64,000 bases of DNA from NCBI GenBank assembly GCA_964651435.1, contig CAZYVU010000010.1:11392-75391 (forward strand). The letters run 5' to 3'. Of the stretch, positions 28,498-63,779 are shown piece by piece (the first letter of the stretch is position 1; the number at the start of each line of letters is the position of its first letter). The notes under the pieces were generated by a model. The model searched no databases, had not been told where the DNA came from, and worked only from the letters and a program-made list of their open reading frames with translations. The translations under genes were made by a program, and so were the position numbers. The stretch is from an uncultured Pseudomonadota bacterium. GTDB lineage: Bacteria; Desulfobacterota; Syntrophorhabdia; Syntrophorhabdales; CAYQXL01.

Positions 28498-29781
28498 ATG
28501 ACTGTGCCCCTTGTCGGATGCACCTCCATCGAGCCCTTTGAGGTCTGCTCTATCCGGCCTCCCACGGAGAACTACAGCCTCACCTTCAGACTTACCCGGA
28601 ACTGCGGCTGGAATCGCTGCAAGTTCTGCCCCGTCTACAAGTTGGGGGCCAGGTTCAGCAGGAGAAGCATCGATGAGGTAAAGGGCGATATAGACCGGGC
28701 CCGCCGCATCGATGATCTCCTCGCGGACTTGGGGGTCGACAGCCCATCGCGACGGCACGACCTCTACGGAAAGGTCGGAGCGCTCATCGAAAAGCTGGGT
28801 GCCGGGAAAGGGAATCGGGAGGCCCACGCCACACCTGGCGACAACGATGATGATGAACGGATGGCCTGGTTCGCCTCGTGGTTCAAGGAGAAGCCTTCCC
28901 TGGAAGACAGCATTTACCACGTACTTACGTGGCGGCTTTACGGCGGAGGCACGGCCTTCCTTGGCGATGCCGATTCGCTTCTGCTGCGGCCCGACTTTTT
29001 CTCCGACGTCATGGGGTACGTCAGGGAACGGTTTCCCGCCATAGGACGGTTTACCGTATACGGCCGTACGCGGTCGGCAGTGCGGAAACCCTTCGACGAC
29101 CTTCGTGCATTCGCCCGTGCGGGCCTTCACCGCATCCATTTCGGCATCGAGAGCGGGAGTGACAGGGTACTCACGTTCATGAGTAAAGGCGAAACGGCAG
29201 GGGACCACGTGGAGGGTTGCCGAAAAGCGAGAGAAGCGGGCATCTCCCCGTCCGTTTACGTTATGCCCGGACTCGGAGGGACAGCATGGTCGGAGGAACA
29301 TGCCTACGAGACGGCACGGGTCATCACGGAGGCAAAGCCCGACTACGTGCGACTCCGCACCCTGGAGATCTTTCCGGGGACGCCTCTTGCCGAGGCCGTG
29401 GCCGCCGGAGGGTTTACGGAGGCGACAGAGGAGCAGGTGGTCAGGGAGATCAGGATCATTGTCGCACATGCCGACGGCCCCATGACGCTGGTGAGTGACA
29501 GCGCGTCAAACCTCCTCGACGTGGGCGGCAGACTTCCTCAGGACAGGGAAAAGACGCTTTCAGTGATCGATGGCTACCTGGCCATGAGCGGGCGCGAGAA
29601 GCTCGAGTTCAGCCTCCTGTCACGCCTTCAGTCCTTCCTCGGCCAGTACGGCAACCTGTCGCCTGACATTGCGAGGATCGTCGCGCCCTACCTCGGAGAG
29701 GATAGCATCAACACATCGCGTATGTCCGAGGAACTTCTTCACGGAACGATCAGGCTGATCCGTTCGAAGCTTATGCCTTAG
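28498..29781 (+). CDS. Radical SAM superfamily protein with a CX4CX2C cluster motif
   Basis: RNCGWNRCKFCPVY, then FLGDADSLL (GGE-like region), GLHRIHFGIESGS and YVMPGLGG. It starts 4 nt after the SYLF stop. Confidence 0.8.
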   Translation: MTVPLVGCTSIEPFEVCSIRPPTENYSLTFRLTRNCGWNRCKFCPVYKLGARFSRRSIDEVKGDIDRARRIDDLLADLGVDSPSRRHDLYGKVGALIEKLGAGKGNREAHATPGDNDDDERMAWFASWFKEKPSLEDSIYHVLTWRLYGGGTAFLGDADSLLLRPDFFSDVMGYVRERFPAIGRFTVYGRTRSAVRKPFDDLRAFARAGLHRIHFGIESGSDRVLTFMSKGETAGDHVEGCRKAREAGISPSVYVMPGLGGTAWSEEHAYETARVITEAKPDYVRLRTLEIFPGTPLAEAVAAGGFTEATEEQVVREIRIIVAHADGPMTLVSDSASNLLDVGGRLPQDREKTLSVIDGYLAMSGREKLEFSLLSRLQSFLGQYGNLSPDIARIVAPYLGEDSINTSRMSEELLHGTIRLIRSKLMP

Positions 29782-31014: not shown

Positions 31015-34000
31015 ATGGGCCGCCGTCTTTGCTTGTTCACCTGGACAGTCATTGCTGTCATTTTCTTTACATTTCAGGCATACGCTCACGCGTCCGGCGT
31101 ACCCGGCGCGCCACAGGATGCGCTGGAGGACGCCAGCGACAACACCGTCTGGACGTGGGGCGCAAATTTCAGCGGCGAACTGGGGAATGGTACGTGGGAG
31201 CCCGGCACAAGAACCCCCGGCGAGCTGGCCGACTTTGCGGACGTAACATCCGTCGCCGCCGGCGACGCTTTCACGGTTGCCCTCAAATCGGACGGCACCG
31301 TCTGGACCTGGGGGAACAATGCGTTCGGCCAGCTCGGTGATGGGACGACAGTGAACAAGAATGTGCCGACCCAGGTGCCGACCCTCTCCGACATCATCGC
31401 GATGGCGGCCGGGCCGTATCACACCGTCGCCCTTACATCGGCCGGCACGGTCTGGGCCTGGGGCAGGAATGATTACGGTCAGGTCGGCGATGGGACGACG
31501 ACAAACCGGCTGAGCCCCGTCGTCGTCGCGGGCGTTACGGGGGTTACGGCCATTGCGGCCGGGTATGAGCACACCTTGGCAGTCAGATCGGACGGCACCG
31601 TCTGGACCTGGGGACGCAACAATGGCGGCCAGCTCGGTGACGGGACGACGACAAACCGGCTGAGCCCCGTCCAGGTGTCGGTGCTCACGGGCGCTGTGCG
31701 CTTGGCGGGCGGGGGCTGGCACTCCATGGCCCTCAAGTCGGACGGCACCGTCTGGACCTGGGGGTCGAACCTCCACGGCCAGTTGGGTGACGGCTCGTAC
31801 GACTGGAGCGTCATCCCCAAGGTGGTGCCTGGCTTCGCGGGCATAGCGAACATCGCATGCGGCGGCGACTACTCCATGGCCCTCAAGTCTGACGGCACCG
31901 TGTGGACCTGGGGTTTCGGCGGCCAAGGGTCTCTGGGGACGGGCGAGTGGACCAACAGGCTAAGCCCCGTTCAGGTGCCGGGGCTTACAGGCGTCGGAGG
32001 TGCCACCGCCAGGGCGTGCACGACAATAGCCTGGAAATCAGACGGTTCAGGCTTCTGGGCATGGGGCTGTAACGAAGCCGGCCAGTTCGGGGACGGCACA
32101 TTCGGATACCAGAATCCGAGCCCCACCGCCGTGTCGGCGCTTTCGGGCATCGCGACCATGGCAAGCGGCGCCGGTCACACGGTCGCCCTTGCAAACCCGG
32201 CACCGCCCTCGTCCTACATCCTCACCGTTGCCAAGTCGGGGACAGGAGCGGACGCCGTGACATCGTCTCCGGCTGGCATCGACTGCGGCGCCACGTGCAG
32301 CTATGTCTTTACGGCTGGAACGGTCGTCACGTTGACGGCGACCCCTGCCGCAGGCTCCATGTTCACCGGCTGGTCAGGCGGGGGCTGCTCGGGCACGGGA
32401 ACGTGCACGGTGACGCTTGATGCCGATGTTACGGTCACGGCAACCTTTGCAGCCATGCCGATCCTTACCGTTGCCACGTCAGGGACAGGGTCGGGAACGG
32501 TAACGTCGTCGCCGGCGGGCATCGACTGCGGCGCCACGTGCAGCTATGCCTTTACGGCTGGAACGGTCGTCACGTTGACGGCGACCCCTGCCGCAGGCTC
32601 CATGTTCACCGGCTGGTCAGGCGGGGGCTGCTCGGGCACGGGAACGTGCACGGTGACGATGAACAGCGCTACGGCCGTCACTGCAACCTTCGGCAATACG
32701 GCGGTCTTGACCCTCACGAGATTCGGTACCGGCCTGGGAACCGTCACGTCTTCCCCCGCGGGCATCATTTGCGGGAACACCTGCAGCGCCTCCTTCAGCC
32801 CCGGCTCCGTCGTTACCTTGACCGCAACGCCTGCGGCCGGTTCCACCTTTCTGGGCTGGCTTGGCGGCGGCTGCTCGGGCACGGGAACGTGCACGGTGAC
32901 GCCCGGCGCCGCCACGATGGTGGCCGCCATTTTCTCGTCTGCCGCAACGGGTAACATGGTCTGGGCATGGGGAGACAATTATTATTGTCAGATTGGTGAC
33001 GGGACGACGACGGACCGGCTGAGCCCCGTCCAGGTACCGGGGCTGACGGGCGTCGTGGCTGTTGCCGGAGGGGGCTATCACTCCATGGCCCTCACATCGG
33101 CCGGCACCCTATGGACCTGGGGACTCAATGAGGATGGTCAGCTCGGGGATGGGACAAGAACGCAGAGGTGCAGTCCTGTTCAGGTGCCAGGGCTTACCGG
33201 TGTTACGGCCATTTCGGGAGGTTGGGGTCACTCTCTGGCCGTGAAGGCTGACGGCACCGTCTGGGTATGGGGCGGCAACGGTTACGGTCAGCTTGGGGAT
33301 GGGACGACGACGGACCGGCTGAGCCCCGTCCAGGTACCGGGCATGGCGGGCGTTGTGGCCGCGGCTGGAGGCGGCTATCACTCCCTGGTGTTGACATCTG
33401 ATGGAACCGTATGGGCGTTCGGGCACAATACGAATGGCCAGCTCGGGGACGGCACAACGACGGACCGGCTGAGCCCCGTCCAGGTGCCGGGGCTGACGGG
33501 CATCGTGGCCGTAGCAGCAGGGGGCAGCTATTCTGCGGCCCTTAGATCGGATGGCACGGTCTGGGCATGGGGGGACAATTATTATTGCCAGATCGGGGAC
33601 GGGACGACGACGGACCGGTTGAGCCCCGTCCAGGTGCCGGGGCTGACGGACGTTGCCGGGATAGCGGGCGGCGATGCCCACGTTGTAGCAAAAAAGACGG
33701 ACGGCACCGCCAGGGCATGGGGATACAACGCTTACGGTCAGCTTGGGGATGGGACGACAACAAAGAGGTGCAGCCCCGTTCAGGTGTCGGGGCTGACAAA
33801 TGTTGCCGGCATGGCCGGGGGGTACGGGCACAGCCCGGCGCTCACATCAAGCGGTACCTTTTGGGCCTGGGGCCGCAATTTTAACGGTCAGCTTGGGGAT
33901 GGGACGACAACAAACAGATCAAGTCCTGGCCAGGTACCGGGGCTGACGGGAGGTCTCAGCGTTTCAGCGGGCTGGGAACACAGCATCGCCCTTCGGGCCG

Positions 34001-37000
34001 GTGAGACGCCCTCTTCCTACGCCCTTGCTGTCACAAGGACCGGTACCGGCGCGGGCGCGGTAGCCTCCTCCCCGGCCGGCATCGACTGCGGGGCCACCTG
34101 CAGCGCCTCCTTCAGCGCCGGCACCGTCGTTACCTTGACCGCAACGCCCGATGCCGGTTCCATCTTTACGGGCTGGTTGGGCAGCGGGTGCTCGGGCACG
34201 GGAACATGTACGGTGACACTGAACAGCAATACGGTGGTTGCCGCCCTCTTTTCACCGGAGGCAACCAGCAATGTGGTGTGGACCTGGGGACACAACGAAT
34301 ATGGCCAGCTCGGGGATGGAACGACGGCGGACAGACACAGCCCGATTGCTGTATCGGGCGTCACGAATGCCGTTGGGATTACCGGTGGGGATGCCCATAC
34401 GCTGGCTGTCACATCGGCCGGTACGGTCTGGGCGTGGGGGTGGAACCTCTATGGCCAGCTCGGGGACGGAACGACGGCGGACAGGCTGAGCCCCGTCCAG
34501 GTGCCGGGCATGGCGGGCGTTGCCGATGCTGGGGCCGGCGCCTCTCATACCGTCGCGGTGAAGTTCGACAGCACGGTCTGGGCCTGGGGAAGCAACAACT
34601 CCGGCCAAGTCGGGGACGGGACGACGACAAACAGGCTAAGCCCCGTTCAGGTGCCGGGGCTGACGGGTGTGGTGGCCATCGCGGCCGGTGGTTACCACTC
34701 CATGGCCCTCAAATCGGACGGGACCGTCTGGGCGTGGGGATGGAATGCATTCGGTCAAATCGGGGACGGGACGACGACAAACAGGCTAAGCCCCGTTCAG
34801 GTGCCGGGGCTGACGGGTGTGGTGGCCATCGCGGCCGGTGCTTACCACTCCATGGCCCTCAAATCGGACGGGACCATCTGGGCGTGGGGAGGAAATATGT
34901 ACGGCCAGGTCGGTGACGGGACAGTGACGGACAGGCTGAGTCCCGTTCAGGTGCCCGCCTTCACCGGTACTAAGGGTATTGCAGCGGGGGGCTTTCACTC
35001 TGTGGCCCTCAAATCGGATGGGACCATCTGGGCGTGGGGGGACAACACCCTGGGACAAATCGGGGACGGCACGACAACGGAACGGCGCAGTCCCGTTCAG
35101 GTGCCGGGCATGGCAGCAGTTGCACGAATCGGAGGCGGCGGCGGACACACGGTAGCCCTCGCGTCGAACGGCACCCTCTGGACTTGGGGCAACAACTCCA
35201 AGGGTCAGATCGGGGACGGAACGACGACGAACAGGCTGAGCCCCGTCCAGGTGCCGGGGCTGACGGCGGTTACGGGGATTGCCGGCGGGTGGAAGCACAC
35301 AATGGCCGTCAGGGCCGGAGGAGAGCCCACTTCCCACACCCTTACCGCCACAAGGACCGGTACCGGCGCGGGCGCGGTAGCCTCCTCCCCGGCCGGCATC
35401 GACTGCGGGGCCACCTGCAGCGCCTCCTTCAGCGCCGGCACCGTCGTTACCTTGACCGCAACGCCCGATGCCGGTTCCATCTTTACGGGCTGGTTGGGCA
35501 GCGGGTGCTCGGGCACGGGAACATGCACAATAACGCTCAGCGGCGACAGCATCGTCGTTGCCCTATTCTCACAGCAGGGAACGGATAGCAGCCTCTGGAC
35601 CTGGGGCAACAACGAGAATGGCCAGCTCGGGGACGGAACGACGACGAACAGGCTAAGCCCCGTTCAGGTGCCGGGGCTGACGGGTCTGCAAGGAACGGCG
35701 GGCGGAGCGGAACACTCAATGGCCCTGAAGTCGGACGGCACGGTCTGGGCATGGGGCAACAATTTCTACGGCCAGCTCGGGGATGGGACGACGACGGACA
35801 GCCTGAGCCCTATCCAGGTGCCGGGGCTCGCGGGCATAGTTGCCGTGGCAGCCGGGGACTATCACAGTGCGGCCTTGAAGTATGATGGTACGGTCTGGAC
35901 CTGGGGATCAAACGGCAACGGACAGCTCGGGGACGGTACGACGACGGACAGCCTGAGCCCTATCCAGGTGCCGGGGCTCGCGGGTGTCATCGACCTTGCG
36001 AGCGGCGGTTATCACATTGTGGCGCTCAAATCGGATGGCACGGTCCGGGCCTGGGGTTGGAACGAGGACGGCCAGATTGGGGACGGAACCACTACAGAGA
36101 GACTGAGCCCTGTCCAGGTGCCGGGGCTCGCGGGTGTTAAAGCTATCGCCACCGGCGACTATCATTCTATGGCCATCAAGTCCGACGGAACGGTCTGGGC
36201 CTGGGGCTGGAATGAGAATGGTCAACTTGGGGATGGGACGACGACGAACGGGCTGAGCCCTGTTCAGGTACCGGGGCTTGCGGGTATGACAGCAGTCGCT
36301 GGCGGGAACTCCCACACCGTTGCCCTAAAATCGGACGGTACGGTCTGGGCCTGGGGTTGGAACGAAGCGGGTCAGCTTGGGGACGGAACGACAACCCAGC
36401 GGCTGAGCCCTGTCCAGACAACGGGGCTGACGGGCGCTGTCACTGTCGCCACCGGCGGCTATCATTCCCTGGCCATCAAGTCGGACGGTACCCTCTGGAC
36501 CTGGGGCTGGAACGAGGACGGTCAACTTGGGGACGGGACGACGACGAACAGGCTGAGCCCTGTCCAGGTACCGGGGCTTGCGGGTATCGCGAAGATTGCC
36601 GCGGGATACGTCCATTCCCTTGCCCTCAAGTTTCCCTCCTCCTATATGCTCACCGTTACTAAGACGGGGGCCGGCACGGGCACCGTGACGTCGTCACCGG
36701 CGGGCATCGACTGCGGGGCCGTCTGCAGCGCCCAGTTCATCCAAACTACGGTCATTACCCTCACTGCCACGGCAGCATCCAACTCCTCCCTAACGGGCTG
36801 GTCAGGCTGTGACAGCACCCCTGCTGCAAACCAATGTGTGGTAACCATGAATGCCGCACGGTTTGTAGAAGCGTCATTCGCGCTGAAGACCTACGTCGTC
36901 ACCCCGTCTGCGGGCGCCAACGGCACGATGACACCTAACACGCCACAGACCGTCACCCATAACGCCACCACCTCTTTTACCGTTACCCCCGCCACGGGCT

Positions 37001-38571
37001 ACCACATCGACTCCGCAACGGGCTGCGGCGGGACCCTTTCGGGCTCCACCTACACCACGGGCCCCATCACCGCCGACTGCACGGTCAGTGCCACCTTTGC
37101 CATTAACACGTACACCATCTCCGCCTCCGTCTCCGGAGGCCACGGCACGGTCACCGTCGTAACCCCTACGGTTCCCCATGGCGGCACGGCTACTATTAAT
37201 ATTTCCCCCGACACGGGTTACCACATAGCAGGCATTACGGACAACGGCATCTCCGTGAGGATAATAAACCCCTACACCATCCAGAACGTCACGGCGGCCC
37301 ACACCATCGTCGCCACCTTTGAAGTGAACAGGTACACGCTCACGGCTACTACATCCGGACCGGGCACCGTAAGCGCCGCCGGCCTCATATGCTCCGGAAG
37401 CACGTGCACGGGCACGTATGATTACGGCACAACCGTGGCAGTGACGGCCGCACCCGCTGCGGGCTCCATGCTGAGCGGCTGGTCAGGCTGTGACAGCTCA
37501 TCGGGTAACACGTGTTCGGTGAGCATGACGTCCGACCGGAGTATCAGCGCAACCTTCATCGTTATCAAGACCTTGACCGTTTCCAAAGCCGGTTCCGGTA
37601 CCGTTGCCTCGGCCCCTCCGGGCATCGCTTGCGGCAGCGCCTGCAGTGCACCGTTCACGCCCGGCACCGTCGTAACGCTCACCCCAACTCCTGACACAGG
37701 GAATGTCTTTGCTTACTGGTCGGGGGCCTGCACGGGTAAGCTTGCGACCTGTCTTGTAACGATGGACGCCGACAAGACGGTGGGGGCCGTCTTCGTGCCG
37801 GCGAAAACAAAGACAGTAAAGCTCACCGTCACAAAGGTGAAGACAGCCAAAGGGGACGGCACCGTCGAGAGCAGCGACGGTACGATCAATTGCGGAAAGG
37901 ATTGCTCGGAACTTTTTTATCCCAATACACCCGTCCTTCTCCGCGCCACCCCCAACGCCGACTCGGTGTTTACCGGCTGGTCGGGCACAGGCATTACCTG
38001 TCCCGGTACGGGGACCTGCTCCGTTACCATGGACAAGGCCTATACGGTGAAGGCTACATTTGTCGGGCCGTCGCTTCTGAAGGTCCAAAAGGCCCCAAAG
38101 AACAAGGGAACGGGCGTCATCACCAGCAGCGACGGCGCCATTGACTGCGGAGAGGAGTGTCAGAAGAGTTATGTTTACAACACCGCCGTCACCCTGACGG
38201 CAACGCCTGATCCCGGCTCCGTCTTCATCTCCTGGACGGGCTGTGATGCTGTGTCGGCAAACGTGTGCACCTTTGCGATGAAAAAAGCGAGGACCGCCAA
38301 GGCCACTTTTGAAGGCCCCGTCATCGTCACGGTGACAAGGGCATACCAGAAGAAGGGCGCGGGGACCGTTACGTCTTCCCCGTCCGGCATCGACTGCGGA
38401 ACCACATGCAAGGCCGGGTTTACGAAGGGGACTGAGGTCACCCTGACGGCTACCCCTGCTGCCGGCTCGGTCTTTGGCGGCTGGTCAGGGGGCGGTTGTT
38501 CGGGGACGGGGACGTGTACCATCACCGCCGAGAAGACTACGACCGTGAGGGCGACGTTTATCGGGAGGTGA
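31015..38571 (+). CDS. Giant secreted protein: 4 x seven-bladed RCC1-like beta-propellers interleaved with 13 Ig-like (divergent InlB B-repeat-type) modules
   Basis: Signal-like N-terminus MGRRLCLFTWTVIAVIFFTFQAYAHA. There are 28 blades with the signature DGTVWxWGxNxxGQLGDGTTxxRxSPVQVxGL, counted 7+7+7+7. The modules are of the type GTVTSSPAGIDCGxxCS..TLTATPxxGSxFxGWSGxxCSGTGTCTVT. Confidence 0.9.
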   Translation: MGRRLCLFTWTVIAVIFFTFQAYAHASGVPGAPQDALEDASDNTVWTWGANFSGELGNGTWEPGTRTPGELADFADVTSVAAGDAFTVALKSDGTVWTWGNNAFGQLGDGTTVNKNVPTQVPTLSDIIAMAAGPYHTVALTSAGTVWAWGRNDYGQVGDGTTTNRLSPVVVAGVTGVTAIAAGYEHTLAVRSDGTVWTWGRNNGGQLGDGTTTNRLSPVQVSVLTGAVRLAGGGWHSMALKSDGTVWTWGSNLHGQLGDGSYDWSVIPKVVPGFAGIANIACGGDYSMALKSDGTVWTWGFGGQGSLGTGEWTNRLSPVQVPGLTGVGGATARACTTIAWKSDGSGFWAWGCNEAGQFGDGTFGYQNPSPTAVSALSGIATMASGAGHTVALANPAPPSSYILTVAKSGTGADAVTSSPAGIDCGATCSYVFTAGTVVTLTATPAAGSMFTGWSGGGCSGTGTCTVTLDADVTVTATFAAMPILTVATSGTGSGTVTSSPAGIDCGATCSYAFTAGTVVTLTATPAAGSMFTGWSGGGCSGTGTCTVTMNSATAVTATFGNTAVLTLTRFGTGLGTVTSSPAGIICGNTCSASFSPGSVVTLTATPAAGSTFLGWLGGGCSGTGTCTVTPGAATMVAAIFSSAATGNMVWAWGDNYYCQIGDGTTTDRLSPVQVPGLTGVVAVAGGGYHSMALTSAGTLWTWGLNEDGQLGDGTRTQRCSPVQVPGLTGVTAISGGWGHSLAVKADGTVWVWGGNGYGQLGDGTTTDRLSPVQVPGMAGVVAAAGGGYHSLVLTSDGTVWAFGHNTNGQLGDGTTTDRLSPVQVPGLTGIVAVAAGGSYSAALRSDGTVWAWGDNYYCQIGDGTTTDRLSPVQVPGLTDVAGIAGGDAHVVAKKTDGTARAWGYNAYGQLGDGTTTKRCSPVQVSGLTNVAGMAGGYGHSPALTSSGTFWAWGRNFNGQLGDGTTTNRSSPGQVPGLTGGLSVSAGWEHSIALRAGETPSSYALAVTRTGTGAGAVASSPAGIDCGATCSASFSAGTVVTLTATPDAGSIFTGWLGSGCSGTGTCTVTLNSNTVVAALFSPEATSNVVWTWGHNEYGQLGDGTTADRHSPIAVSGVTNAVGITGGDAHTLAVTSAGTVWAWGWNLYGQLGDGTTADRLSPVQVPGMAGVADAGAGASHTVAVKFDSTVWAWGSNNSGQVGDGTTTNRLSPVQVPGLTGVVAIAAGGYHSMALKSDGTVWAWGWNAFGQIGDGTTTNRLSPVQVPGLTGVVAIAAGAYHSMALKSDGTIWAWGGNMYGQVGDGTVTDRLSPVQVPAFTGTKGIAAGGFHSVALKSDGTIWAWGDNTLGQIGDGTTTERRSPVQVPGMAAVARIGGGGGHTVALASNGTLWTWGNNSKGQIGDGTTTNRLSPVQVPGLTAVTGIAGGWKHTMAVRAGGEPTSHTLTATRTGTGAGAVASSPAGIDCGATCSASFSAGTVVTLTATPDAGSIFTGWLGSGCSGTGTCTITLSGDSIVVALFSQQGTDSSLWTWGNNENGQLGDGTTTNRLSPVQVPGLTGLQGTAGGAEHSMALKSDGTVWAWGNNFYGQLGDGTTTDSLSPIQVPGLAGIVAVAAGDYHSAALKYDGTVWTWGSNGNGQLGDGTTTDSLSPIQVPGLAGVIDLASGGYHIVALKSDGTVRAWGWNEDGQIGDGTTTERLSPVQVPGLAGVKAIATGDYHSMAIKSDGTVWAWGWNENGQLGDGTTTNGLSPVQVPGLAGMTAVAGGNSHTVALKSDGTVWAWGWNEAGQLGDGTTTQRLSPVQTTGLTGAVTVATGGYHSLAIKSDGTLWTWGWNEDGQLGDGTTTNRLSPVQVPGLAGIAKIAAGYVHSLALKFPSSYMLTVTKTGAGTGTVTSSPAGIDCGAVCSAQFIQTTVITLTATAASNSSLTGWSGCDSTPAANQCVVTMNAARFVEASFALKTYVVTPSAGANGTMTPNTPQTVTHNATTSFTVTPATGYHIDSATGCGGTLSGSTYTTGPITADCTVSATFAINTYTISASVSGGHGTVTVVTPTVPHGGTATINISPDTGYHIAGITDNGISVRIINPYTIQNVTAAHTIVATFEVNRYTLTATTSGPGTVSAAGLICSGSTCTGTYDYGTTVAVTAAPAAGSMLSGWSGCDSSSGNTCSVSMTSDRSISATFIVIKTLTVSKAGSGTVASAPPGIACGSACSAPFTPGTVVTLTPTPDTGNVFAYWSGACTGKLATCLVTMDADKTVGAVFVPAKTKTVKLTVTKVKTAKGDGTVESSDGTINCGKDCSELFYPNTPVLLRATPNADSVFTGWSGTGITCPGTGTCSVTMDKAYTVKATFVGPSLLKVQKAPKNKGTGVITSSDGAIDCGEECQKSYVYNTAVTLTATPDPGSVFISWTGCDAVSANVCTFAMKKARTAKATFEGPVIVTVTRAYQKKGAGTVTSSPSGIDCGTTCKAGFTKGTEVTLTATPAAGSVFGGWSGGGCSGTGTCTITAEKTTTVRATFIGR
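32275..32658 (+). repeat. Intragenic direct repeat: two 141-nt copies (32275-32415, 32518-32658), 1 mismatch
   Basis: Read directly. The offset is 243 nt (81 codons). It covers adjacent Ig-like modules. Confidence 0.9.
34032..35525 (+). repeat. Intragenic long-range direct repeat: identical 177-nt blocks at 34032-34208 and 35349-35525
   Basis: Read directly. The offset is 1317 nt (439 codons). Both encode TRTGTGAGAVASSPAGIDCGATCSASFSAGTVVTLTATPDAGSIFTGWLGSGCSGTGTC. Confidence 0.85.
34610..34890 (+). repeat. Intragenic tandem repeat: two 131-nt copies (34610-34740, 34760-34890), 2 mismatches
   Basis: Read directly. The offset is 150 nt, which is one RCC1 blade. Confidence 0.85.
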
Positions 38572-42867: not shown

Positions 42868-43614
42868 CTACCGCCGGTTTACGCTCCGGAGGAGTGCCTC
42901 CTGTGCCTTGGGTGAAAGACCAAGGCCAGGCAGGTCCTTCCGCAGGGATTCGACAGTACCGAAGCCCCCCACGTATCCGTTGACCCGCGTAACGGCCGGG
43001 GAAGCAATAAAATCCTTAAGGTCCGGATACCTGGCATAGTATTCCTTCGCGATCTCCGGCCGGCCTCGCAGGTAATACTTCTGGTGGTAGTCCTCGGCAA
43101 GATAGAACTTGCGAAAGGGTACGACCTCCGTTTGGGCCTTGTGGCCCACTTTCTTTTCAAGCTGTCCCAAAAAGGCCGCGGCGGCCTTCTGCTGCTCGGC
43201 GCTGTGGTAAAAGATGACAGAGGCATACTGACGTGACCACGACCGGCTGAAGGGTTCGTGGCTGTCGGCAAAAACCTTAAGAAGCCCTTCATAGGTCACC
43301 CTTGCCGGGTCAAAGTCTATCTGAATCGTCTCGGAATGGTCACCCAAACTTCGGTAGGTTGGATTTTCTTTGGTCCCGCCGCTGTAGCCGACACGCGTCC
43401 TCACCACTCCATCGATAAGCCCGAACCGGGCATCGGGACCCCAAAATCACCCAAGGGCAAAGGTGGCTGTTTCAAGCGCCTTCTTTTCGCCGGCCCGGCT
43501 GTGGTCGACCACTCCTGGGAGCATAAGCATGCAGATGGCCGTGAGTCCAACAAGGGATAGGTGGGCCAAGAGGCTGCCCGGGGACTTTACCCTGATACGC
43601 AATCTGCTTTTCAT
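42868..43614 (-). CDS. msrA: Peptide methionine-S-sulfoxide reductase MsrA with in-frame UGA (selenocysteine) at the catalytic position and an N-terminal signal/anchor
   Basis: ORFs 43447..43725 and 42868..43407 are in the same frame and are separated only by TGA at 43447-43449. The read-through gives ..ETATFALG-U-FWGPDARFGLIDGVVRTRVGYSGG, i.e. the GCFWG active-site motif with U for C. The start MKSRLRIRV is at 43614. Confidence 0.8.
43413..43435 (-). promoter_or_regulatory. Candidate bacterial SECIS hairpin
   Basis: Minus-sense CGAUGCCCG-GUU-CGGGC-UU-AUCG begins 12 nt after the UGA codon. It has a GC-rich upper stem, a GU-containing apical loop and a UU bulge. Confidence 0.5.
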
Positions 43615-43804: not shown

Positions 43805-44005
43805 TTACCTTTTTACTACGTTTGCTGCTGCAGGACCCTTCGGTCCGCTGACAACGTCAAAAGTCACCGCATCCCCTTCTGATAAGGATCTGAAACCACT
43901 GCCCTGAATGACCGTATGATGAACAAAAACATCGGAGCCATCGTCTGTGGTAATAAATCCAAATCCTTTTGCATCATTAAACCACTTCACTGTACCTCTT
44001 GCCAT
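43805..44005 (-). CDS. Cold-shock domain protein (CspA family)
   Basis: [15 protein letters not shown] (RNP1) and DVFVHH (RNP2). 66 aa. Confidence 0.95.
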
Positions 44006-44170: not shown

Positions 44171-45919
44171 CTATGAATCCTGCTTTGCCCTCTTTTGCCG
44201 GTACATCATCTTGTCGGCACGGCCAAGAATCTCGTCGAGGGTCAAAGGTGCATCGGGGTTGTAGCGGGCCGCACCCATGCTCGCCGAGAGGGCATATCGT
44301 CTGGTCCTGAAACGGTTAAATTCCTGAACGGCTGAAGACCATCGCCCGGCAATGACCTCTCGGGTCTCCTGAGAGGCGTCGATGACAAGGACGGCAAACT
44401 CGTCTCCCCCCATGCGGGCAAGAATATCGGACTCGCGAAACGTCTTCCTTAAAATGTCGGCCATGTCTACAAGGGCCATGTCGCCCTCGTGGTGCCCCAG
44501 CGTGTCGTTTATCCATTTCATGTTGTCCAGATCAAAAAAGAAAAGCTCCATGGCCCTGCCCGTTCTTTCGGCCAGCTTCATCTGTCTCTGAGCAAGGGCA
44601 AAGAACCCCCGTCGATTGTAGAGCCCTGTCAACTCGTCCATAACGGACATGGTGCGAAGCCTCTCCTCCAGCCTTTTTCGATCCGTCACGTCCCTGAGGT
44701 GAGCGAGAGAAACCCGTTGTCCATGATAGGCAATGCCGGCCACGGAGGTTTCTACGGTAAGAACCGAACCATCCTTGCGGACGCCTTTGAATTCGTACCG
44801 GGGAGGCACAGGCTCGCACCGTTGCCGCCTGCGGTTGAGCTCCATGACTCTCTGGCGGTCGTCGGGATGAACGACCACAAAGGGGTCTTGGCCCACAACG
44901 TCCTCGGGCTTGTCATACCCGAACATCTCAAGGAACTTTTGGTTCACATAGATGTGCTGGTCTCCCGAAACAAGTGCTATGCCGTCATTTGAGTGCTCGA
45001 TCGCCATTCTGCAACGCTCTTCCGATTCCAGCAGCTTCTCCTCCGTCTCCTTTCGTTCCGTGATATTCTCGTGGGTGCCCTCGTAGTAGAGCAGGCTCCC
45101 TCTCCCGTCCCGAACGACCCGCGCGTTGACGGAGACCCAGACGGCCCCGCCATCCTTCTTCCGTATCTGGTGCTCAAAGTTTCGCACCGATCCCTGTTCG
45201 GCCAGCAGTTTCTTGAAGAGTTTCCTCTTCCCCGGATCGACATAGTGCTGCGTGGCGATGTCGGTAATGCTTTCCATCATCTCCCTGGCCGAATCATACC
45301 CGCACATCTTGACGAAGGCAGGGTTGACGCTTAGGAAACGCCCCTCCGGGGTGCTCTGGAAAATGCCTTCAACGGCGTTCTCAAAAATGCTCCGGTACTT
45401 CTCCTCGCTTTTTTTTAGGGCTTCCTCCGCCGCCCTCTTTCTGGTCACATCACGCCACACGACATGGGTCAACGTCCTGCCACGAAAGGGAATTAACGTC
45501 AGGGCCACCTCCACCAACAGGTCCTGGTCTTCCGCTGTCCGGTGAAGCCACTCGAAATGGCTGCCGCCATCCCTCTGGGCCACAGACAGCAGACCCTTCT
45601 CCTTCTCCGAAGAGCTTTGGCCGTCGGGCTGGAACTCAGGAGACAGCTCCGATGGGCGCCTCCCTATGACCTGGCCCTTTGTCGAAAGACCTAAAACCCG
45701 CACCGCAGCCTCGTTGGCATCAATAAAATTGTCACCGTCGATAAGAAGGACGGGGTCAGCCGATTTTTCAAAGATGAGATGAAACTTGTTCTCACTTTCC
45801 TCAAGCTGCTTTTCCACGCCTGCGAATCGGAGGAGGTCCGCTTCCAGCTCGGAAACGCGTTTCCGAAGCGCGTTAAGTTCCTGCTGAAGAGCAGTCATTC
45901 GGGGGTTTGGGTTTTTCAT
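44171..45919 (-). CDS. PAS-domain diguanylate cyclase (coiled coil + 3 PAS + GGDEF)
   Basis: C-terminal RMGGDEFAVL with the RESD (RxxD I-site) five residues upstream. There are repeated PAS-like blocks (FENAVEGIFQSTPEGRFLSVNPAF..) and an N-terminal heptad-rich segment. Confidence 0.88.
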   Translation of the reverse strand: MKNPNPRMTALQQELNALRKRVSELEADLLRFAGVEKQLEESENKFHLIFEKSADPVLLIDGDNFIDANEAAVRVLGLSTKGQVIGRRPSELSPEFQPDGQSSSEKEKGLLSVAQRDGGSHFEWLHRTAEDQDLLVEVALTLIPFRGRTLTHVVWRDVTRKRAAEEALKKSEEKYRSIFENAVEGIFQSTPEGRFLSVNPAFVKMCGYDSAREMMESITDIATQHYVDPGKRKLFKKLLAEQGSVRNFEHQIRKKDGGAVWVSVNARVVRDGRGSLLYYEGTHENITERKETEEKLLESEERCRMAIEHSNDGIALVSGDQHIYVNQKFLEMFGYDKPEDVVGQDPFVVVHPDDRQRVMELNRRRQRCEPVPPRYEFKGVRKDGSVLTVETSVAGIAYHGQRVSLAHLRDVTDRKRLEERLRTMSVMDELTGLYNRRGFFALAQRQMKLAERTGRAMELFFFDLDNMKWINDTLGHHEGDMALVDMADILRKTFRESDILARMGGDEFAVLVIDASQETREVIAGRWSSAVQEFNRFRTRRYALSASMGAARYNPDAPLTLDEILGRADKMMYRQKRAKQDS

Positions 45920-53960: not shown

Positions 53961-54221
53961 GGGAGAGGGCCGCCTCGGACATCCTTTCGCTCATCTGCCA
54001 AGAACAAGTGCCAAACGGTCAGGTACTGGAGCGGCAAGTTCGCCGCTGCGATGTCCCGTTCCCTGGGGGAGTCGCGAGACACTCCTGATGGGCCGGCACC
54101 CGTTCTAAGAGATTGGGTTCGTACCAGAACCGCATGTCAAACCCACACCGTTGCCATAGTGGCAGTCCTGCGTTGCTACTGAGCCATCATCACAGCCTGT
54201 CATTCCGCTGCCCGTTGCTAC

Positions 54222-54368
54222 CTAGACCGTCGGCATACACCATCCCGAAGCCGAAACGCCATCTCCGTTGGAGCAGTGTCCATCATTGACCGCATCAGAA
54301 CCACTTATGCACTGTCCCACGGCGAGTCTACTGGAAAGCGAAATACATTGCGGCACTTCGTATCGCAT
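54222..54368 (-). CDS. Small Cys-periodic peptide (48 aa; continues in frame past a TAG to 54105)
   Basis: GGGGAG RBS then ATG at 54368, giving MRYEVPQCISLSSRLAVGQCISGSDAVNDGHCSNGDGVSASGWCMPTV. Cys residues fall at 8, 20, 32 and 44. A promoter-like element lies upstream. Confidence 0.45.
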   Translation of the reverse strand: MRYEVPQCISLSSRLAVGQCISGSDAVNDGHCSNGDGVSASGWCMPTV

Positions 54369-54407
54369 AGCTACTCCCCCTTTCCCCTTGACCTCATTGA
54401 AGAGCAA

Positions 54408-54521
54408 CGTATGTTTTGAAAATAGCAGCGATTTTACCGATCGTCAAGGGATAGTTTTCCCCTTCCCTGTTTCCCAATGCGTACAACAGAACTTTTTTCT
54501 GCGGTTAGAACCCGGTTAGAA
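54408..54521. repeat. 114-bp direct repeat, copy A (partner at 58555-58668)
   Basis: CGTATGTTTTGAAAATAGCAGCGATTTTAYCGATCGTYAAGGGATAGTTTTCCCC ... TTCTGCGGTTAGAACCCGGTTAGAA is shared. The ends are nearly identical and the middle is diverged. Weaker similarity extends ~37 bp further left in both copies. Confidence 0.9.
54419..54447 (-). promoter_or_regulatory. Putative sigma70-type promoter (TTGACG-N17-TATTTT) for the peptide gene
   Basis: On the minus strand the -35 is at 54447-54442 and the -10 at 54424-54419. Upstream are two TTCTAACCG direct repeats with 11-bp period (plus-strand CGGTTAGAA at 54502-54510 and 54513-54521). Confidence 0.45.
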
Positions 54522-54576
54522 TCTCTCTCCTGCACCAAAAACGTCCCGGGAACTTTCCCTGAGCCGTTGTCTGCGT

Positions 54577-54626
54577 TGGTTGCGGGGATTGGATTTGAAC
54601 CAATGACCATCGGGGATGAGCCGGTT
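54577..54626 (-). pseudogene. tRNA-fMet-like 3' half remnant (anticodon arm to CCA), no 5' half
   Basis: Minus-sense AACCGGCTCATCCCCGATGGTCATTGGTTCAAATCCAATCCCCGCAACCA. The T-arm ATTGG-TTCAAAT-CCAAT and the 3' end CCCCGCAACCA mirror the initiator tRNA 3' end. A CAT anticodon lies in a degenerate loop. No matching CGCGGGG 5' strand occurs within 350 nt. Confidence 0.6.
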
Positions 54627-55065
54627 AAGTGACCTTAAATCAAGCAATGACAGGTATCGCGAGGAGAGACCACGACTTACCCCTGCTCTACGGTGTGTCG
54701 TGAGATTGGTCTTTGTGGATGACAAAAAGACATTTTTCAGGAATACTCAAAATGGTATAGTTTTGGATATCAATAATGCCGACGGACTCTCTATATGAAC
54801 GCGGGCTCAAGGGAAAGAGTTGCCCATGCATATTAGATTAAAGATCCGGGAGCCCTCCGGGATTGTTGGTATCTACAAGAAGCGCTCACTATACCTATCC
54901 ATGACGGGGTACCGATAATTATGCCCGAAATGAAAGAAGATCTGTCGGTTGAGTCTTCAGAGGAGGATTAGGTTTTGTCCGTAGAAACCGAAGACCCCAT
55001 TGGGACAAACGCCTGAGGCTTATTCAACAATTGGTTGCGGCTCATTGCAGAGACAGGAGGAATCC

Positions 55066-57432
55066 ATGGATAAAGACATCACTCAGGGTCGGTTTGACGG
55101 CCTGTCGCGTCGAAGATTTCTTGCAATGCTGGGGGCTGCCGGCGCAACTCTTGCTGCATACAAGATCGGTGCAAAGAGGGCGTCTGCCGCCGAGAGTATT
55201 GAACCCGTTTCCGTTCAGGACGTACAACAGGGCGAGGACATCTTTGCATACATAAAGAGAATGAAAGGCGGTTTTGATCAGAGATTCTTCCAGCAGGTTA
55301 TCGGCGCCGCCAATGAGTTCAAAGAAGGAGACTTGACGATCGGAGTAGGTGCTAAGGATGACGCTGCCCGTCACAATGCCCGCGCTCTTCTGTCGAGCAC
55401 GAAGATCAAAGACCTCTATGAGCATCCCCTTCTCGTAGACAGCCTCCAGAAATTGATCTGGCAGACTACCGACCAGGCCCGGTATGCCGAGATTAAAGAG
55501 TGGACCATGGGGCGGTTGAAAGAATTTCTCCTTACACAGCCCGAGGTCGAGATTAAAGCCATTATGGCTGGTCTCACAAGCGACACCATCGGCTGCGTGC
55601 CCAAGCTGATGACCAATGAAGAGCTTATAAAACTGAGTCAAAAGATCTTCAACGTGCTGCCCGGCGCCAAAATAGGGGCAAAAGGCTACATGGGCGCCCG
55701 CATCCAGCCCAATTCACCAACAGACCATCCCGATGATGTGGCGTGGCAGGTTTTTGACGCATTTTCCTATGCAACTGGTGATATCGTCATCGGGACCAAC
55801 CCCGTCGACAGCCAGGTCAAGAATAACCTTGCGGTGCAAAAGACCCTCAGAGAGATTGTGGAAGCATTCCAACTCCAGGATACGATCCCCTGGTGCGTGC
55901 TTGCCCATATCGACGTGCAGGCAGAGGTGAGAAAACAATATCCCGGAATGGTCGAAACGATGTTCCAAAGCATCGCCGGAACGGATGACTGCAACAAGAC
56001 CTTCGATGTCACCGTTGATAAGATTCTGCATTATGCGAGATCGAAGAGGGGCGAAAGATACGGGCTTTACTTCGAGACAGGGCAGGGTTCCGAGTTCACC
56101 AACGGGGCGGCAAAGGGCGTCGATATGATGGTGCTCGAGTCCCGTAAATACGGTTTTTCCAGGGCCGTCGGCATGGAGCTGGCCAAAGTTCAGCCCAAAG
56201 GCGCCTGGCTCCACGTCAATGATGTGGCAGGCTTTATCGGGCCTGAAGTCTTCAAGACACGCGATCAATTGGTGCGGTGCTGCCTTGAAGACCTGGCAAT
56301 GGGCAAACTCCATGGACTGACTATCGGCCTCGATATTTGTTCCACCCTTCACATGACAGTGAGTTTGGATGATCTGGATTGGTGCCAGGATCAGATCATG
56401 CCGGCTAACCCCGTGTACCTCATTGCGCTGCCTACCAAGAACGATCCCATGCTTGGGTATCTGACAACGGCCTTTCAGGACCATGTTCGCTTGAGAGATA
56501 GATTCGGCTATAAAGTTGACGATGCAATGTGGAGTTTCTATAAAAGGATCGGGATCGTCGATAAGAACAACGGATATACAGGCCATTTCGGGGATCCGCT
56601 CTGGGTCTATTACCAGTATTGTCTTGCCAAGGAAGACGCACGCTCGAAGGACGCCATCTATGCCGAGGGGAAACGAAAAATGAAAGAGGTGGAGGAGAGA
56701 GGCGTTGATTTGGCCACCGGTCATGGCAAACATCTCTGGGATCTCAATCCCGAACTGGCGGCCAAAGTTACAACGCTCTACCATGATGCAAAAAAATGTA
56801 TCCGGACGGAACTCACCCCCGAGTTCGTAAAAACAATACCCAATGCGTTGCCGATCAAGACTCTATCCGGGAGCCGCGATGAGTACATTTCCCACCCCGA
56901 AACAGGTGAAAAGTTACGCCCTCAGTCGATAACGGCCCTGGTAAAACTGAGAGATTCCTGGGTAGACCCGGCTAACCCGGTCAAAGGCCAAATCGTCATT
57001 TCCGACGGTCTGAACGCCAACGCCATTATGGACGAGAACCACCTTGCCCCGTATCTCGCTGAAATACGAAAACTCTTTGCCGAGGCCGGCGTTACGCTGA
57101 GCAATACAAACATCGTCGTCACCGGAGGAAGGGTCCGCGCAGGATACAGGATTGGGGAGCTGCTCTTTGAAAAGTCGAACGCCAACGAGTTTAGAGCCGT
57201 CCTGCACATCATCGGCGAACGGCCCGGAACCATGCATCATTCCTATTCCGTCTACATCACGGTTGTAAGGGGCAGCGTGTGGGCGCAGAAAAAAATCGAC
57301 CATGACATAACAAAGGTCGTCTCCAATATCGCCGATACGGCCTTACCGCCCAAGGAAGCGGCTCGGGAGACGTTGATGATCATACGGGAGCTGGTAGGGA
57401 AAGAAGCCCATAACAGCCGCCGCCTCCGCTGA
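55066..57432 (+). CDS. Ethanolamine ammonia-lyase-like EutB-EutC fusion with an N-terminal twin-arginine (Tat) signal
   Basis: Tat signal SRRRFLAMLGAAGATLAA...ASAAE. The EutB part has ARIQPN, GDIVIGTNPV, VLAHI, LYFETGQGSEF, GFIGPEV and YLTTAFQDH. The EutC part has VISDGLNANAI, GGRVRAGYRIGELL, IIGERPG and VSNI. AGGAGG RBS before the ATG at 55066. Confidence 0.85.
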   Translation: MDKDITQGRFDGLSRRRFLAMLGAAGATLAAYKIGAKRASAAESIEPVSVQDVQQGEDIFAYIKRMKGGFDQRFFQQVIGAANEFKEGDLTIGVGAKDDAARHNARALLSSTKIKDLYEHPLLVDSLQKLIWQTTDQARYAEIKEWTMGRLKEFLLTQPEVEIKAIMAGLTSDTIGCVPKLMTNEELIKLSQKIFNVLPGAKIGAKGYMGARIQPNSPTDHPDDVAWQVFDAFSYATGDIVIGTNPVDSQVKNNLAVQKTLREIVEAFQLQDTIPWCVLAHIDVQAEVRKQYPGMVETMFQSIAGTDDCNKTFDVTVDKILHYARSKRGERYGLYFETGQGSEFTNGAAKGVDMMVLESRKYGFSRAVGMELAKVQPKGAWLHVNDVAGFIGPEVFKTRDQLVRCCLEDLAMGKLHGLTIGLDICSTLHMTVSLDDLDWCQDQIMPANPVYLIALPTKNDPMLGYLTTAFQDHVRLRDRFGYKVDDAMWSFYKRIGIVDKNNGYTGHFGDPLWVYYQYCLAKEDARSKDAIYAEGKRKMKEVEERGVDLATGHGKHLWDLNPELAAKVTTLYHDAKKCIRTELTPEFVKTIPNALPIKTLSGSRDEYISHPETGEKLRPQSITALVKLRDSWVDPANPVKGQIVISDGLNANAIMDENHLAPYLAEIRKLFAEAGVTLSNTNIVVTGGRVRAGYRIGELLFEKSNANEFRAVLHIIGERPGTMHHSYSVYITVVRGSVWAQKKIDHDITKVVSNIADTALPPKEAARETLMIIRELVGKEAHNSRRLR

Positions 57433-57487: not shown

Positions 57488-58519
57488 ATGAAAGAAGAGG
57501 CGCAGATGAATGCCCTTTGTGTATCAATTGTTTTCGCATTATTTCTGGCAGGTTTTGCCATCCCCGGCGACTCGTACGGAAAAGATGAGGCGGTGCGGTA
57601 TGCTGTTGTGGACAACCACATCCACTTCCTCGATTTTGTCCAGGAAACGGACGGCTTCGAACGGCTCATTCAGGCCATGGACAAGGCCGGCGTTGAGAAG
57701 GCGGTCATCTTCGGTGTGCCGGTCGTAAAAACCTGGACAGAGGCAGACCCGGTTCGGCCGGTCTACTACCTTGACACGGATTCTCCCGCTTACTATTTCA
57801 GCGGCACAGACTTCATCCTTGCCCACGACCTCTCACGGCAACCGCCCGAGGTAAGGAGAAGATTCTTCCCCTTTCTGTGCGGATTCAACCCCGTAGACAT
57901 GAACGCTGCAAAGCAGATCGAGTTGATGCTGAAGACGTACCCGGGGTTCTGGAGGGGCATCGGCGAGATCATGTCTCGCCACGACGAATTGACCGCCTTC
58001 ATCCATGGTCAGACCCCCCGTGCGGACCACCCGGCGCTGATGCTCGTCTACAAGTTTGCAGCCGCTCAAGGGCTCCCCGTTCTTATCCACCATAACATCT
58101 CCTCCGCCCGGAAGGAAGATCCTATCTATTTGAGAGAACTGGAGCATGCCATACGGGAAAATCCCCGGACGGTCTTTATCTGGGCGCATGGCGGTATCTC
58201 GCGGCGCCTTGAGGTCCCCTCTTTGCTCACCGATCTCAGGAGAATGCTATCGGCTTACCCGAACCTCTCCATCGATATCTCGTGGGTCATTTACCCTGAC
58301 TATATAGCAAAAGACAAAGAATCAATGGCGAGGTGGGTCGCTTTCATAGAAGAGTTCCCGGACAGGGTCGTGATCGGCTCCGATATGGTCGGGCACTGGA
58401 AAACATATCCCCGGGAAATCATGAAGTACTACCGCCTGCTCGACTCCCTCAAGCCCGCCACGGCGGAGAAAGTTGCGAGAAGCAACATCCTGCGCCTCCT
58501 CGGCGAGAAGGCTCCTTAG
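57488..58519 (+). CDS. Periplasmic amidohydrolase (TIM-barrel metal-dependent hydrolase)
   Basis: Sec-type signal NALCVSIVFALFLAGFAIPG. VVDNHIHFLDF (HxH metal motif), LIHHN, FIWAHGG and VIGSDM. Confidence 0.8.
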   Translation: MKEEAQMNALCVSIVFALFLAGFAIPGDSYGKDEAVRYAVVDNHIHFLDFVQETDGFERLIQAMDKAGVEKAVIFGVPVVKTWTEADPVRPVYYLDTDSPAYYFSGTDFILAHDLSRQPPEVRRRFFPFLCGFNPVDMNAAKQIELMLKTYPGFWRGIGEIMSRHDELTAFIHGQTPRADHPALMLVYKFAAAQGLPVLIHHNISSARKEDPIYLRELEHAIRENPRTVFIWAHGGISRRLEVPSLLTDLRRMLSAYPNLSIDISWVIYPDYIAKDKESMARWVAFIEEFPDRVVIGSDMVGHWKTYPREIMKYYRLLDSLKPATAEKVARSNILRLLGEKAP

Positions 58520-58554
58520 CTGCTCCCCCTTCCCTCCATTTCATTAAGGAGTAC

Positions 58555-58668
58555 CGTATGTTTTGAAAATAGCAGCGATTTTATCGATCGTTAAGGGATA
58601 GTTTTCCCCCTCTCTGCACGTCAATGCATACAAGAAAACTTCTTTCTGCGGTTAGAACCCGGTTAGAA
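58555..58668. repeat. 114-bp direct repeat, copy B
   Basis: See copy A. It carries the same promoter-like hexamers (TTAACG-N17-TATTTT on minus, 58594-58566), pointing antisense into the amidohydrolase gene. Confidence 0.9.
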
Positions 58669-59463: not shown

Positions 59464-59612
59464 AAGGCAGGCCTCCATCATGTCTCGCTTCACAGCGCCA
59501 GACATACCAGCGCCGGCATGAGGACACATGCAGGCCAGAACATCAAGCGCGTATCGAGTCAGTTGGGGCATGCTTCGATCAAGAGATCACCCTCGACACC
59601 TACAGCAACCCG
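59464..59612 (+). pseudogene. Tyrosine recombinase/integrase C-terminal remnant, frameshifted
   Basis: KAGLHHVSLHSARHTSAG..AGQNIKRVSSQLGHASIK is read in one frame, followed by ITLDTYSNP in the -1 frame. This matches the box II region (H-x-x-R-H-T ... LGHasi..T..tY) of phage-type integrases. No N-terminal part is present. Confidence 0.65.
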
Positions 59613-59815
59613 TCTCAAGGTGTAGCGTCCATCAAGCAGCAGGTGGAGCTGCTGGGGGGATCGCAGCCACATCGAAAGAGGGCGACAAGTCCCAAGTTCA
59701 TTCTCCATTGATATGACCAAATACAGGAGCAGGCCAACCCGGACAGTTGCATCGGCGGATCAGGCGACGAGGCTCAGAGCATCAAGAAGCCTGAACCAGG
59801 GTGGATTGTCGACTT

Positions 59816-62156: not shown

Positions 62157-63779
62157 TAGGAGCCTGTCGGACTTTTCCCGTCCAATAACCATCGTAATAG
62201 GTTATAATCATTCATCTTTAAAGCAACTACCCCCAGGAGCGTACGAGAATGAGTGTGCGGTTTGTCGACTGCGATCGAGCCACCCCCTACTTACTTCCTC
62301 CCTCACTGGAAGACTGGCTGCCCGAAGGCCATCTTGCCAGGTTTGTGGTGGAGATTGTGGAACGCCTTGACCTTCGTTCAATACGAGACTCCTATACCGG
62401 CCGGGGGTCTTACCCCTACGAGCCTGCGATGCTCGCAGCGCTGCTTTTCTACGGCTACGCAATGGGAGTGTTCTCCAGCAGAAAGCTGGAGGCGAGCACC
62501 TATGATTCTGTTGCATTCCGGTACATTGCCGCCAACAGTCACCCCGATCACGACACCATCGCCAGTTTCCGGAAGAGATTCCTGCCGGAACTGGAAAGCC
62601 TCTTTACGCAGATCCTTGCCATTGCAGGACAGATGGGGGTTCTCAAGCTGGGGGCCGTGAGTCTCGATGGCACGAAGGTGAAGGCAAATGCATCCAAACA
62701 TAGGGCGCTCAGTTATGGTCATGCGACCGTGCTTGAGGAGCAATTGAGGGCTGAGGTTGCCGACCTGATGCGACGGGCGGAAGCTGCCGACGAGACGGAC
62801 ATTCCCGACGGCATGAGCATTCCCGAAGAGCTGGCCCGACGGGAAAAGCGGCTCACGGCAATTGCCCAAGCGAAGGCCGAGATCGAGCGACGGGCCCAAG
62901 AGCGCCATGCCGCTCAAGCGGAAGCCTATGCGAACAAGGTGGCCGAGCGGGTGAAGCAGGAGCACGCTACCGGCAAGAAGCCTAACGGTCCGGCGCCGCA
63001 GGCGCCCCTTCCGGGCCCTACCGCCAAAGACCAGGTGAACCTGACCGACGGCGAATCGCGGATCATGCCCGCATCGAACGGCTTCACACAGGCCTATAAC
63101 GCCCAGGCTGCTGTGGATGTGGGTTCCATGCTCATCGTTACCGGACAGATAAGCCAGCACCCCAATGATAAACAGGAGCTGAAGCCGATGCTCGACGCCA
63201 TTGCCTGCCTGCCCGATGCGCTTGGCGCAATCGGCGTCCTGCTTGCCGACAGCGGTTATTTCAGCGAAGCGAACGTGGCGGGCTGCGAAGCAAGGAAGAT
63301 AACCCCCTACATCGCCCCGGGCCGTGAAGCCCACAATCAGTCACTCGTGGAACGATTTACCGAACCGCCCCCCATTCCCTGTGAGGCCGATTGCGTCACT
63401 ACGATGCGACACCGGCTCAAGACGGCTGCCGGCAAAGCGCTCTATGCCCTCCGGAAGAGCACGGCGGAACCGGTGTTCGGGATTATCAAATCGGTGATGG
63501 GGTTCCGCTCTTTTCTCCTGCGTGGTGTTACGGCCGTGAGCGGCGAATGGAACCTGGTATGTATCGCCTGGAACCTGAAGCGGCTTCACGCATTACAGAG
63601 GTAAGAGGAAGTAGATGAGAAGCTCTTCACCAAACACCGCCTACTCTACGGCAGCGAGCAGCGGGCTGAAACAAATGGGGAACAGATGACCGGCACAGAA
63701 GGTGCGCGCGCTCCTTTTTTGAGACGATGACAGTATTCCTGGATGGAGCTATCAAGACTTCAAGTCCGACAGGCTCCTA
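62157..63779 (+). mobile_element. IS1182-family (IS5-like DDE) insertion sequence, apparently intact
   Basis: 18-bp terminal inverted repeats TAGGAGCCTGTCGGACTT (62157-62174) and its complement (63762-63779) enclose a single transposase ORF. Confidence 0.85.
62249..63604 (+). CDS. IS1182 family transposase
   Basis: The N-terminal LLPPSLEDWLPEGHLARFV..YTGRGSYPYEPAMLAALLFYGY..SSRKLE is characteristic of IS1182/IS5-type transposases. The C-terminal DDE region has LADSGYFS and EPVFGIIK. Confidence 0.9.
   Translation: MSVRFVDCDRATPYLLPPSLEDWLPEGHLARFVVEIVERLDLRSIRDSYTGRGSYPYEPAMLAALLFYGYAMGVFSSRKLEASTYDSVAFRYIAANSHPDHDTIASFRKRFLPELESLFTQILAIAGQMGVLKLGAVSLDGTKVKANASKHRALSYGHATVLEEQLRAEVADLMRRAEAADETDIPDGMSIPEELARREKRLTAIAQAKAEIERRAQERHAAQAEAYANKVAERVKQEHATGKKPNGPAPQAPLPGPTAKDQVNLTDGESRIMPASNGFTQAYNAQAAVDVGSMLIVTGQISQHPNDKQELKPMLDAIACLPDALGAIGVLLADSGYFSEANVAGCEARKITPYIAPGREAHNQSLVERFTEPPPIPCEADCVTTMRHRLKTAAGKALYALRKSTAEPVFGIIKSVMGFRSFLLRGVTAVSGEWNLVCIAWNLKRLHALQR

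Follow-up and report, generated by a model that had tools for sequence, protein, structure and literature searches.

The minus strand of the stretch analysed here (the window, 64,000 nucleotides in length) carries a 48-codon ORF that is a species-restricted orphan. The reading we favour, which we hold to have about an even chance of being right, is that the ORF is non-functional, a decaying remnant or a proto-gene with expression signals borrowed from an adjoining 154-nt repeat. It has no relatives, its composition is unlike that of a gene, the TAG codon that closes it is an ordinary one and no maturase lies nearby; a non-functional or decaying ORF is therefore the most likely explanation. A sequence-only reading of this DNA had described a small gene for a Cys-periodic peptide that continues in frame through a TAG codon, with recoding of the TAG or a RiPP precursor as possible explanations. 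The observation itself was confirmed, but these interpretations found little support.

The Cys-periodic frame occupies positions 54105-54368, as previously reported, and the minus strand is its coding strand. The ATG start is located at 54368-54366 (minus strand), the first 48 codons encode MRYEVPQCISLSSRLAVGQCISGSDAVNDGHCSNGDGVSASGWCMPTV and the first TAG follows at 54224-54222. Beyond it another 38 codons are free of stops, VATGSGMTGCDDGSVATQDCHYGNGVGLTCGSGTNPIS, and a second TAG at 54107-54105 closes the frame. The Cys numbering of the second half counts the first TAG as codon 49. Frame, Cys positions and ribosome-binding site were all confirmed, the Cys positions exactly; the ribosome-binding site reads GGGGGAG. 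An internal ATG of the second half (M56, 54203) has no Shine-Dalgarno (SD) sequence, and the 38-codon continuation is probably an untranslated tail or a former C-terminus. The features of the locus are as follows.

54222-54368, minus strand: 48-codon ORF with its own TAG stop; Cys at 8, 20, 32 and 44
54105-54221, minus strand: in-frame continuation of 38 codons and second TAG; Cys at 59, 69 and 79
54374-54380, minus strand: SD sequence GGGGGAG, 5 nt before the ATG and inside the 154-nt repeat
54419-54447, minus strand: predicted sigma-70-like promoter site, TTGACG-17-TATTTT with an upstream TG
54368-54521: copy 1 of the 154-nt direct repeat, containing the promoter-like block, the SD sequence and the TTCTAACCG pair
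58517-58668: copy 2 of the 154-nt direct repeat, 84% identical to copy 1
54557-54624, minus strand: sequence resembling the 3′ half of a tRNA (T arm, acceptor, CCA), not an intact tRNA

No homologue was found in any of the collections searched. A word-index search of 5.8 billion clustered proteins with the 87-aa read-through product returned no candidates. An exhaustive phmmer search of 1.84 billion representatives with the 48-aa peptide retrieved only two repeat proteins, one with DUF7151 and one Big_2-like, and both matches were judged compositional or local. Scanning JGI metagenomes and the viral contigs of IMG/VR for the peptide produced nothing related, and neither a PDB sequence search nor PHROGs gave a match. 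Metagenomes searched with a degenerate periodic DNA pattern (CI..CI..GxC..GxC at 36 nt) yielded only minisatellites and out-of-frame repeats. Paralogues were absent from the window and from the 8.6 kb to its right. Synteny was searched via the flanking amidohydrolase, in GTDB genomes and among its closest protein relatives. These relatives (84-65% identity) have other downstream neighbours, with neither the ORF nor the intergenic DNA. A plus-strand amidohydrolase pseudogene, for which blastx gave no similarity, was ruled out.

Codon usage in the ORF is also atypical of a gene. GC content by codon position is flat (0.55/0.56/0.52), the GC3 of neighbouring genes being about 0.69. The codon log-odds score is -0.18, compared to +0.30±0.14 in real genes, and falls below 99.7% of in-frame 48-codon windows drawn from real genes. 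The frequency of G at codon position 1 (0.38-0.45) is a gene-like value. Gene callers left the ORF uncalled on every same-species contig examined, and the exact 48- and 61-aa products, when looked up, proved never to have been called as proteins; since small ORFs are under-called, absence from protein databases is weaker evidence here than for a long gene. Same-species contigs from other samples are identical at the locus except for one (L005), in which the sole SNP inside the ORF, 54241 C>T, changes W43 to TAG. By our own count, nonsense changes make up about 5% of the possible point changes in the ORF. The profile is not that of a gene maintained by selection: there are no orthologues, the codon score is in the lowest 0.3% and a W43* allele is present. 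With no relatives, gene-atypical codon use and no gene call, what had been taken for a small gene is probably a non-functional or decaying ORF, and there is no sign of selection maintaining it.

Expression signals are present in the form of the SD sequence and the promoter-like site. The sequence-only reading had named, as an outcome that would refute it, a lack of homologues combined with a lack of transcription or translation signals; of these, only the lack of homologues is observed, within the reach of the searches. A strong SD sequence was found in only 3 of the 31 mostly intergenic ATG-initiated ORFs of at least 45 codons, one of which is a real cold-shock gene. The two copies of the 154-nt repeat are in direct orientation and have sharp edges, at which homology ends. 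The left edge of copy 1 is the A of the ATG of the ORF; thus the start codon exists only at the junction between repeat and unique DNA. The promoter-like block is nearly identical in copy 2, which begins at the TAG stop of the Amidohydro_2 gene 57488-58519 and is followed on the minus strand by antisense coding sequence with no comparable ORF. As the SD sequence and the promoter-like block belong to a repeat whose second copy precedes no ORF, they constitute no ORF-specific evidence. With these signals inside the repeat and the first letter of its ATG contributed by the repeat edge, the ORF may be transcribed, or even translated, by accident of position.

Two blocks of the repeat are perfectly conserved, the TTGACG/TATTTT promoter-like region and the TTCTAACCG pair with 11-nt spacing, the latter located at 54521-54502 in copy 1, and the two copies bracket a eutBC-amidohydrolase gene pair. 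Could the repeat be a regulatory cassette or an RNA element? The two copies give minimal support for RNA structure, with three compensatory pairs on the minus strand. A structured RNA was rejected: Rfam gave no match, for the repeat either, and the minus-strand RNA folds worse than shuffled sequences (z=+2.3). The core blocks of the repeat were not found in viral contigs. Two further intergenic small ORFs with a strong SD sequence occur in the window, one at 43805-44005 (minus strand), which is cold-shock protein-like with a GFGFI motif, and one of 62 aa at 59528-59716 (plus strand).

The tRNA-like sequence lies some 36 nt past the repeat, with its T arm, acceptor and CCA at 54624-54577 (minus strand). 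The terminal 41 nt (54597-54557) occur a second time about 16.6 kb to the right, where a contig continues beyond the window (L212, 12515-12555). Between the two 41-nt copies are located a Tat-signal EutB-EutC fusion, an amidohydrolase, an MltF-like gene, an IS transposase (62249-63604) and an integrase fragment. No intact tRNA was found at either end, and the interval is probably a degraded genomic island with the tRNA-like sequence as its edge. The ORF lies about 190 bp outside the left edge of this island, where some 600 bp of lower-GC DNA separate an amidohydrolase gene from the island edge, and is the sole occupant of a 1,040-bp intergenic gap. Independent same-species metagenome contigs start or end at 54579/54586, 58649 and 58678. 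These break points coincide with the tRNA-like fragment and with repeat copy 2, pointing either to assembly breaks induced by repeats or to a 4.1-kb eutBC segment that varies structurally.

Several other properties of the surrounding DNA were recorded. The GC content is about 0.60-0.65 up to around position 42000 and about 0.52-0.57 from there onwards; the IS element, a PIF1-like helicase and the island features all lie in this lower-GC right-hand third of the window. The fusion at 55000-57432 (plus strand) joins the large and small subunits of ethanolamine ammonia-lyase in one chain and has a twin-arginine-like N-terminus, RRRFLAMLGAAGA. Ethanolamine ammonia-lyase is normally a cytoplasmic B12 enzyme, and such an N-terminus is unusual. 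Further to the left, 31015-38571 (plus strand) encodes a 2518-aa protein with at least 28 RCC1 repeats and 13 divergent InlB B-repeat domains.

The regular spacing of the Cys residues was evaluated against the window itself. In all 860 six-frame stop-to-stop segments of at least 40 aa within the 64-kb window, there are 817 runs of four consecutive Cys residues, and that of the ORF is the only equally spaced one. By a back-of-envelope estimate about 0.3 such runs are expected per window, so the spacing of the first half taken alone is unremarkable; together with the equally spaced Cys triple behind it, the expectation would fall to about 0.01 per window. At the DNA level the 36-nt periodicity of the first half is marginal (autocorrelation 0.39, p=0.058 corrected over all lags) and that of 30 nt in the second half does not reach significance (p=0.28). 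Neither Tandem Repeats Finder nor a second repeat finder detected a repeat in the ORF DNA. Modules 1 and 2 share 7 of 12 residues, with codons that mostly differ, as read from the sequence. The Cys pattern is thus genuine, only modestly above chance and compatible with an old internal duplication; the periodicity may be the trace of such a duplication of a unit of about 36 nt, for which support is marginal.

The two halves on either side of the TAG resemble each other. The half-to-half score is 45, compared to 27±5.7 for composition-matched shuffles (p≈0.009), and residues 20-46 and 59-85 are identical at 10 of 27 positions. The suggestion that the two parts belong together thus holds under a composition control, and this makes it plausible that a formerly longer frame acquired a nonsense mutation long ago. 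Of the three origins proposed earlier for the interrupted frame (a recent nonsense mutation, read-through or a recoded UAG), recoding of UAG is unsupported, TAG being a normal stop here. The 38 in-frame codons after the TAG would then be the dead tail of the longer frame, or may never have been coding.

Taken together, the locus resembles orphan ORFs, proto-genes and gene remnants found beside mobile-element scars. It is restricted to one species, has an atypical composition and a nonsense allele, takes its start codon from a repeat junction and lies next to a tRNA-fragment island edge. It differs from them in its unusually regular Cys residues and in a structural model that looks confident for a random ORF. 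Indeed, the single-sequence AlphaFold2 model of the 48-aa peptide (pLDDT 74, pTM 0.47) shows four strands with a Cys at the centre of each; the one control examined, an antisense ORF, gave pLDDT 62, pTM 0.14 and no secondary structure.

This model, the periodic modules, the strong SD sequence with ideal spacing and the rightly placed promoter-like site are what speak for a functional orphan protein of 48 aa that stops at the TAG. Such a protein might be a Cys-laddered β-meander, metal-binding or otherwise stabilised through its four Cys residues, and expressed from the putative promoter of the 154-nt element. However, the peptide has no homologue and no fold match in the PDB with E<1 by Foldseek, its codon usage is atypical, a W43* allele exists and the ATG was created at the repeat junction. 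Moreover, there is no signal peptide, which would make cytoplasmic disulfides unlikely. We consider this explanation unlikely. A functional orphan peptide of any kind, a category of which the RiPP precursor discussed below forms a small part, is likewise a distinctly minor prospect.

A more specific version of our preferred explanation is that the ORF is the decayed C-terminal fragment of a larger DUF7151-type Cys repeat protein, whose 5′ side was cut off on arrival of the 154-nt element or of the island. The top phmmer match is a protein with seven DUF7151 repeats (E=2.7e-5, whole library). Residues 18-38 align with the repeat core nCaaGGeAietGlDtNgdGi and score 14.9 bits against a home-made profile built from the repeats of that one protein, above all 1000 shuffles, and BLASTP of the ORF peptide against the protein gives 11/30 identities. 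The local motif C-x2-G-x-(D)A-x3-G-x2-(S/T)NGDG(V/I) is shared, and extending the BLASTP alignment without gaps, as read from the sequences, pairs the TAG with a conserved Tyr from which it differs by a single substitution. However, the Pfam model of the repeat (PF23657, gathering score 27.2 bits) does not match the peptide at E≤10, the second half scores -0.4 bits, and both the Cys spacing (12 in the ORF, 31 in the repeat) and the unit length differ. The shuffle test is also biased, as the match was selected as the top one among 1.84 billion and owes its score to the sum of six weak repeats. Descent from a DUF7151-type protein is accordingly quite doubtful.

That the ORF is a true gene, very young or evolving fast, for a peptide with periodic Cys residues seems to us very improbable; such a gene would be driven by the promoter and SD cassette of the 154-nt repeat, and its product either matured by an enzyme encoded elsewhere or extended through the UAG to 87 aa. 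The first of these variants corresponds to the thioether (ranthipeptide- or sactipeptide-like) substrate proposed previously, for which no precursor family was reached. Like the precursors of ranthipeptides/SCIFF and sactipeptides, the ORF product is a short peptide with regular Cys residues amid small residues, one per module; unlike them, it has no model match, no adjacent rSAM-SPASM gene, no recognisable leader and no conservation. The best precursor-model match was to ScmA (TIGR04252), the putative precursor of the SynChlorMet cassette, with 13.7 bits and E=0.055 for the 48-aa part only, over 41 of 49 model positions, the curated trusted cutoff being 35. NCBIfam and Pfam searches at E≤10 returned only this match and DUF4027 noise, with no SCIFF or sactipeptide precursor. 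ScmA and the ORF product are alike in length (about 49 aa), in having several Cys residues and in the deltaproteobacterial lineage of the host. Literature searches for SynChlorMet, TIGR04252 and ScmA returned no papers.

Known ranthipeptide, sactipeptide and ScmA-like precursors are encoded beside their maturase, and the ScmA cassette comprises two radical SAM/SPASM proteins and companions. None of these cassette partners was found in the 64-kb window, and neither were SPASM, YcaO or LanM genes. As the earlier reading had remarked, no maturase is adjacent: rSAM-SPASM, YcaO, LanM and RRE genes are absent within ±10 kb, and the neighbours of the ORF are Amidohydro_2, the EutBC fusion, a second Amidohydro_2, a GDT1-family protein and a ModA-like protein. 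The sole radical SAM gene of the window (28498-29781) lies 25 kb away and has weak B12-rSAM-type matches but none of SPASM type. The YEVP sequence at residues 3-6, proposed as a YxxP leader motif, may well be a four-residue coincidence; by chance alone a few percent of peptides would be expected to contain such a motif, and no RRE or B1 protein is encoded nearby. A RiPP precursor of the ranthipeptide, sactipeptide or ScmA-like type, with its radical SAM maturase elsewhere in the genome, thus has a slender chance of being the correct explanation.

Finally, TAG behaves as an ordinary stop in this DNA. It terminates 15 of the 53 long ORFs of the window, including adjacent high-GC3 genes and the neighbours 57488-58519 and 44171-45919, which argues against a general recoding of UAG. 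A scan of the window for TAG-interrupted frames returned only adjacent genes and no convincing interrupted gene. Genes that decode UAG as pyrrolysine share with the ORF an in-frame TAG with an open frame beyond, but TAG is a common stop here and no pyl genes were found among the approximately 50 proteins scanned in the 64-kb window. The only recoding observed is that of UGA in MsrA, a system separate from UAG. This gene (42868-43530, minus strand) has an in-frame TGA at 43449-43447 in the catalytic motif ALG-U-FWG, matches the Pfam 'selenoprotein MsrA helical domain' and likely encodes a selenocysteine-containing protein. UAG read-through or pyrrolysine insertion yielding an 87-aa product with seven Cys residues is hence most improbable: the 38 open codons after the TAG have a composition like that of the first half and a detectable similarity to it, one strain has a second in-frame TAG and the genome does recode UGA, but 38 codons would stay open by chance with a probability of about 0.16, and within the second half no periodicity is significant.

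Among the features of this stretch, the more tangible ones are the 154-nt repeat and the island boundary. Were the ORF functional, it would represent an orphan Cys-ladder peptide without a family and a possible case of stop-codon read-through. On the reading we prefer, that of a non-functional orphan ORF, the locus illustrates how an ORF with the outward marks of a gene, an SD sequence, a promoter and periodic Cys residues, can be present in scar DNA, next to a repeat and the edge of an island, and yet not be a maintained gene.
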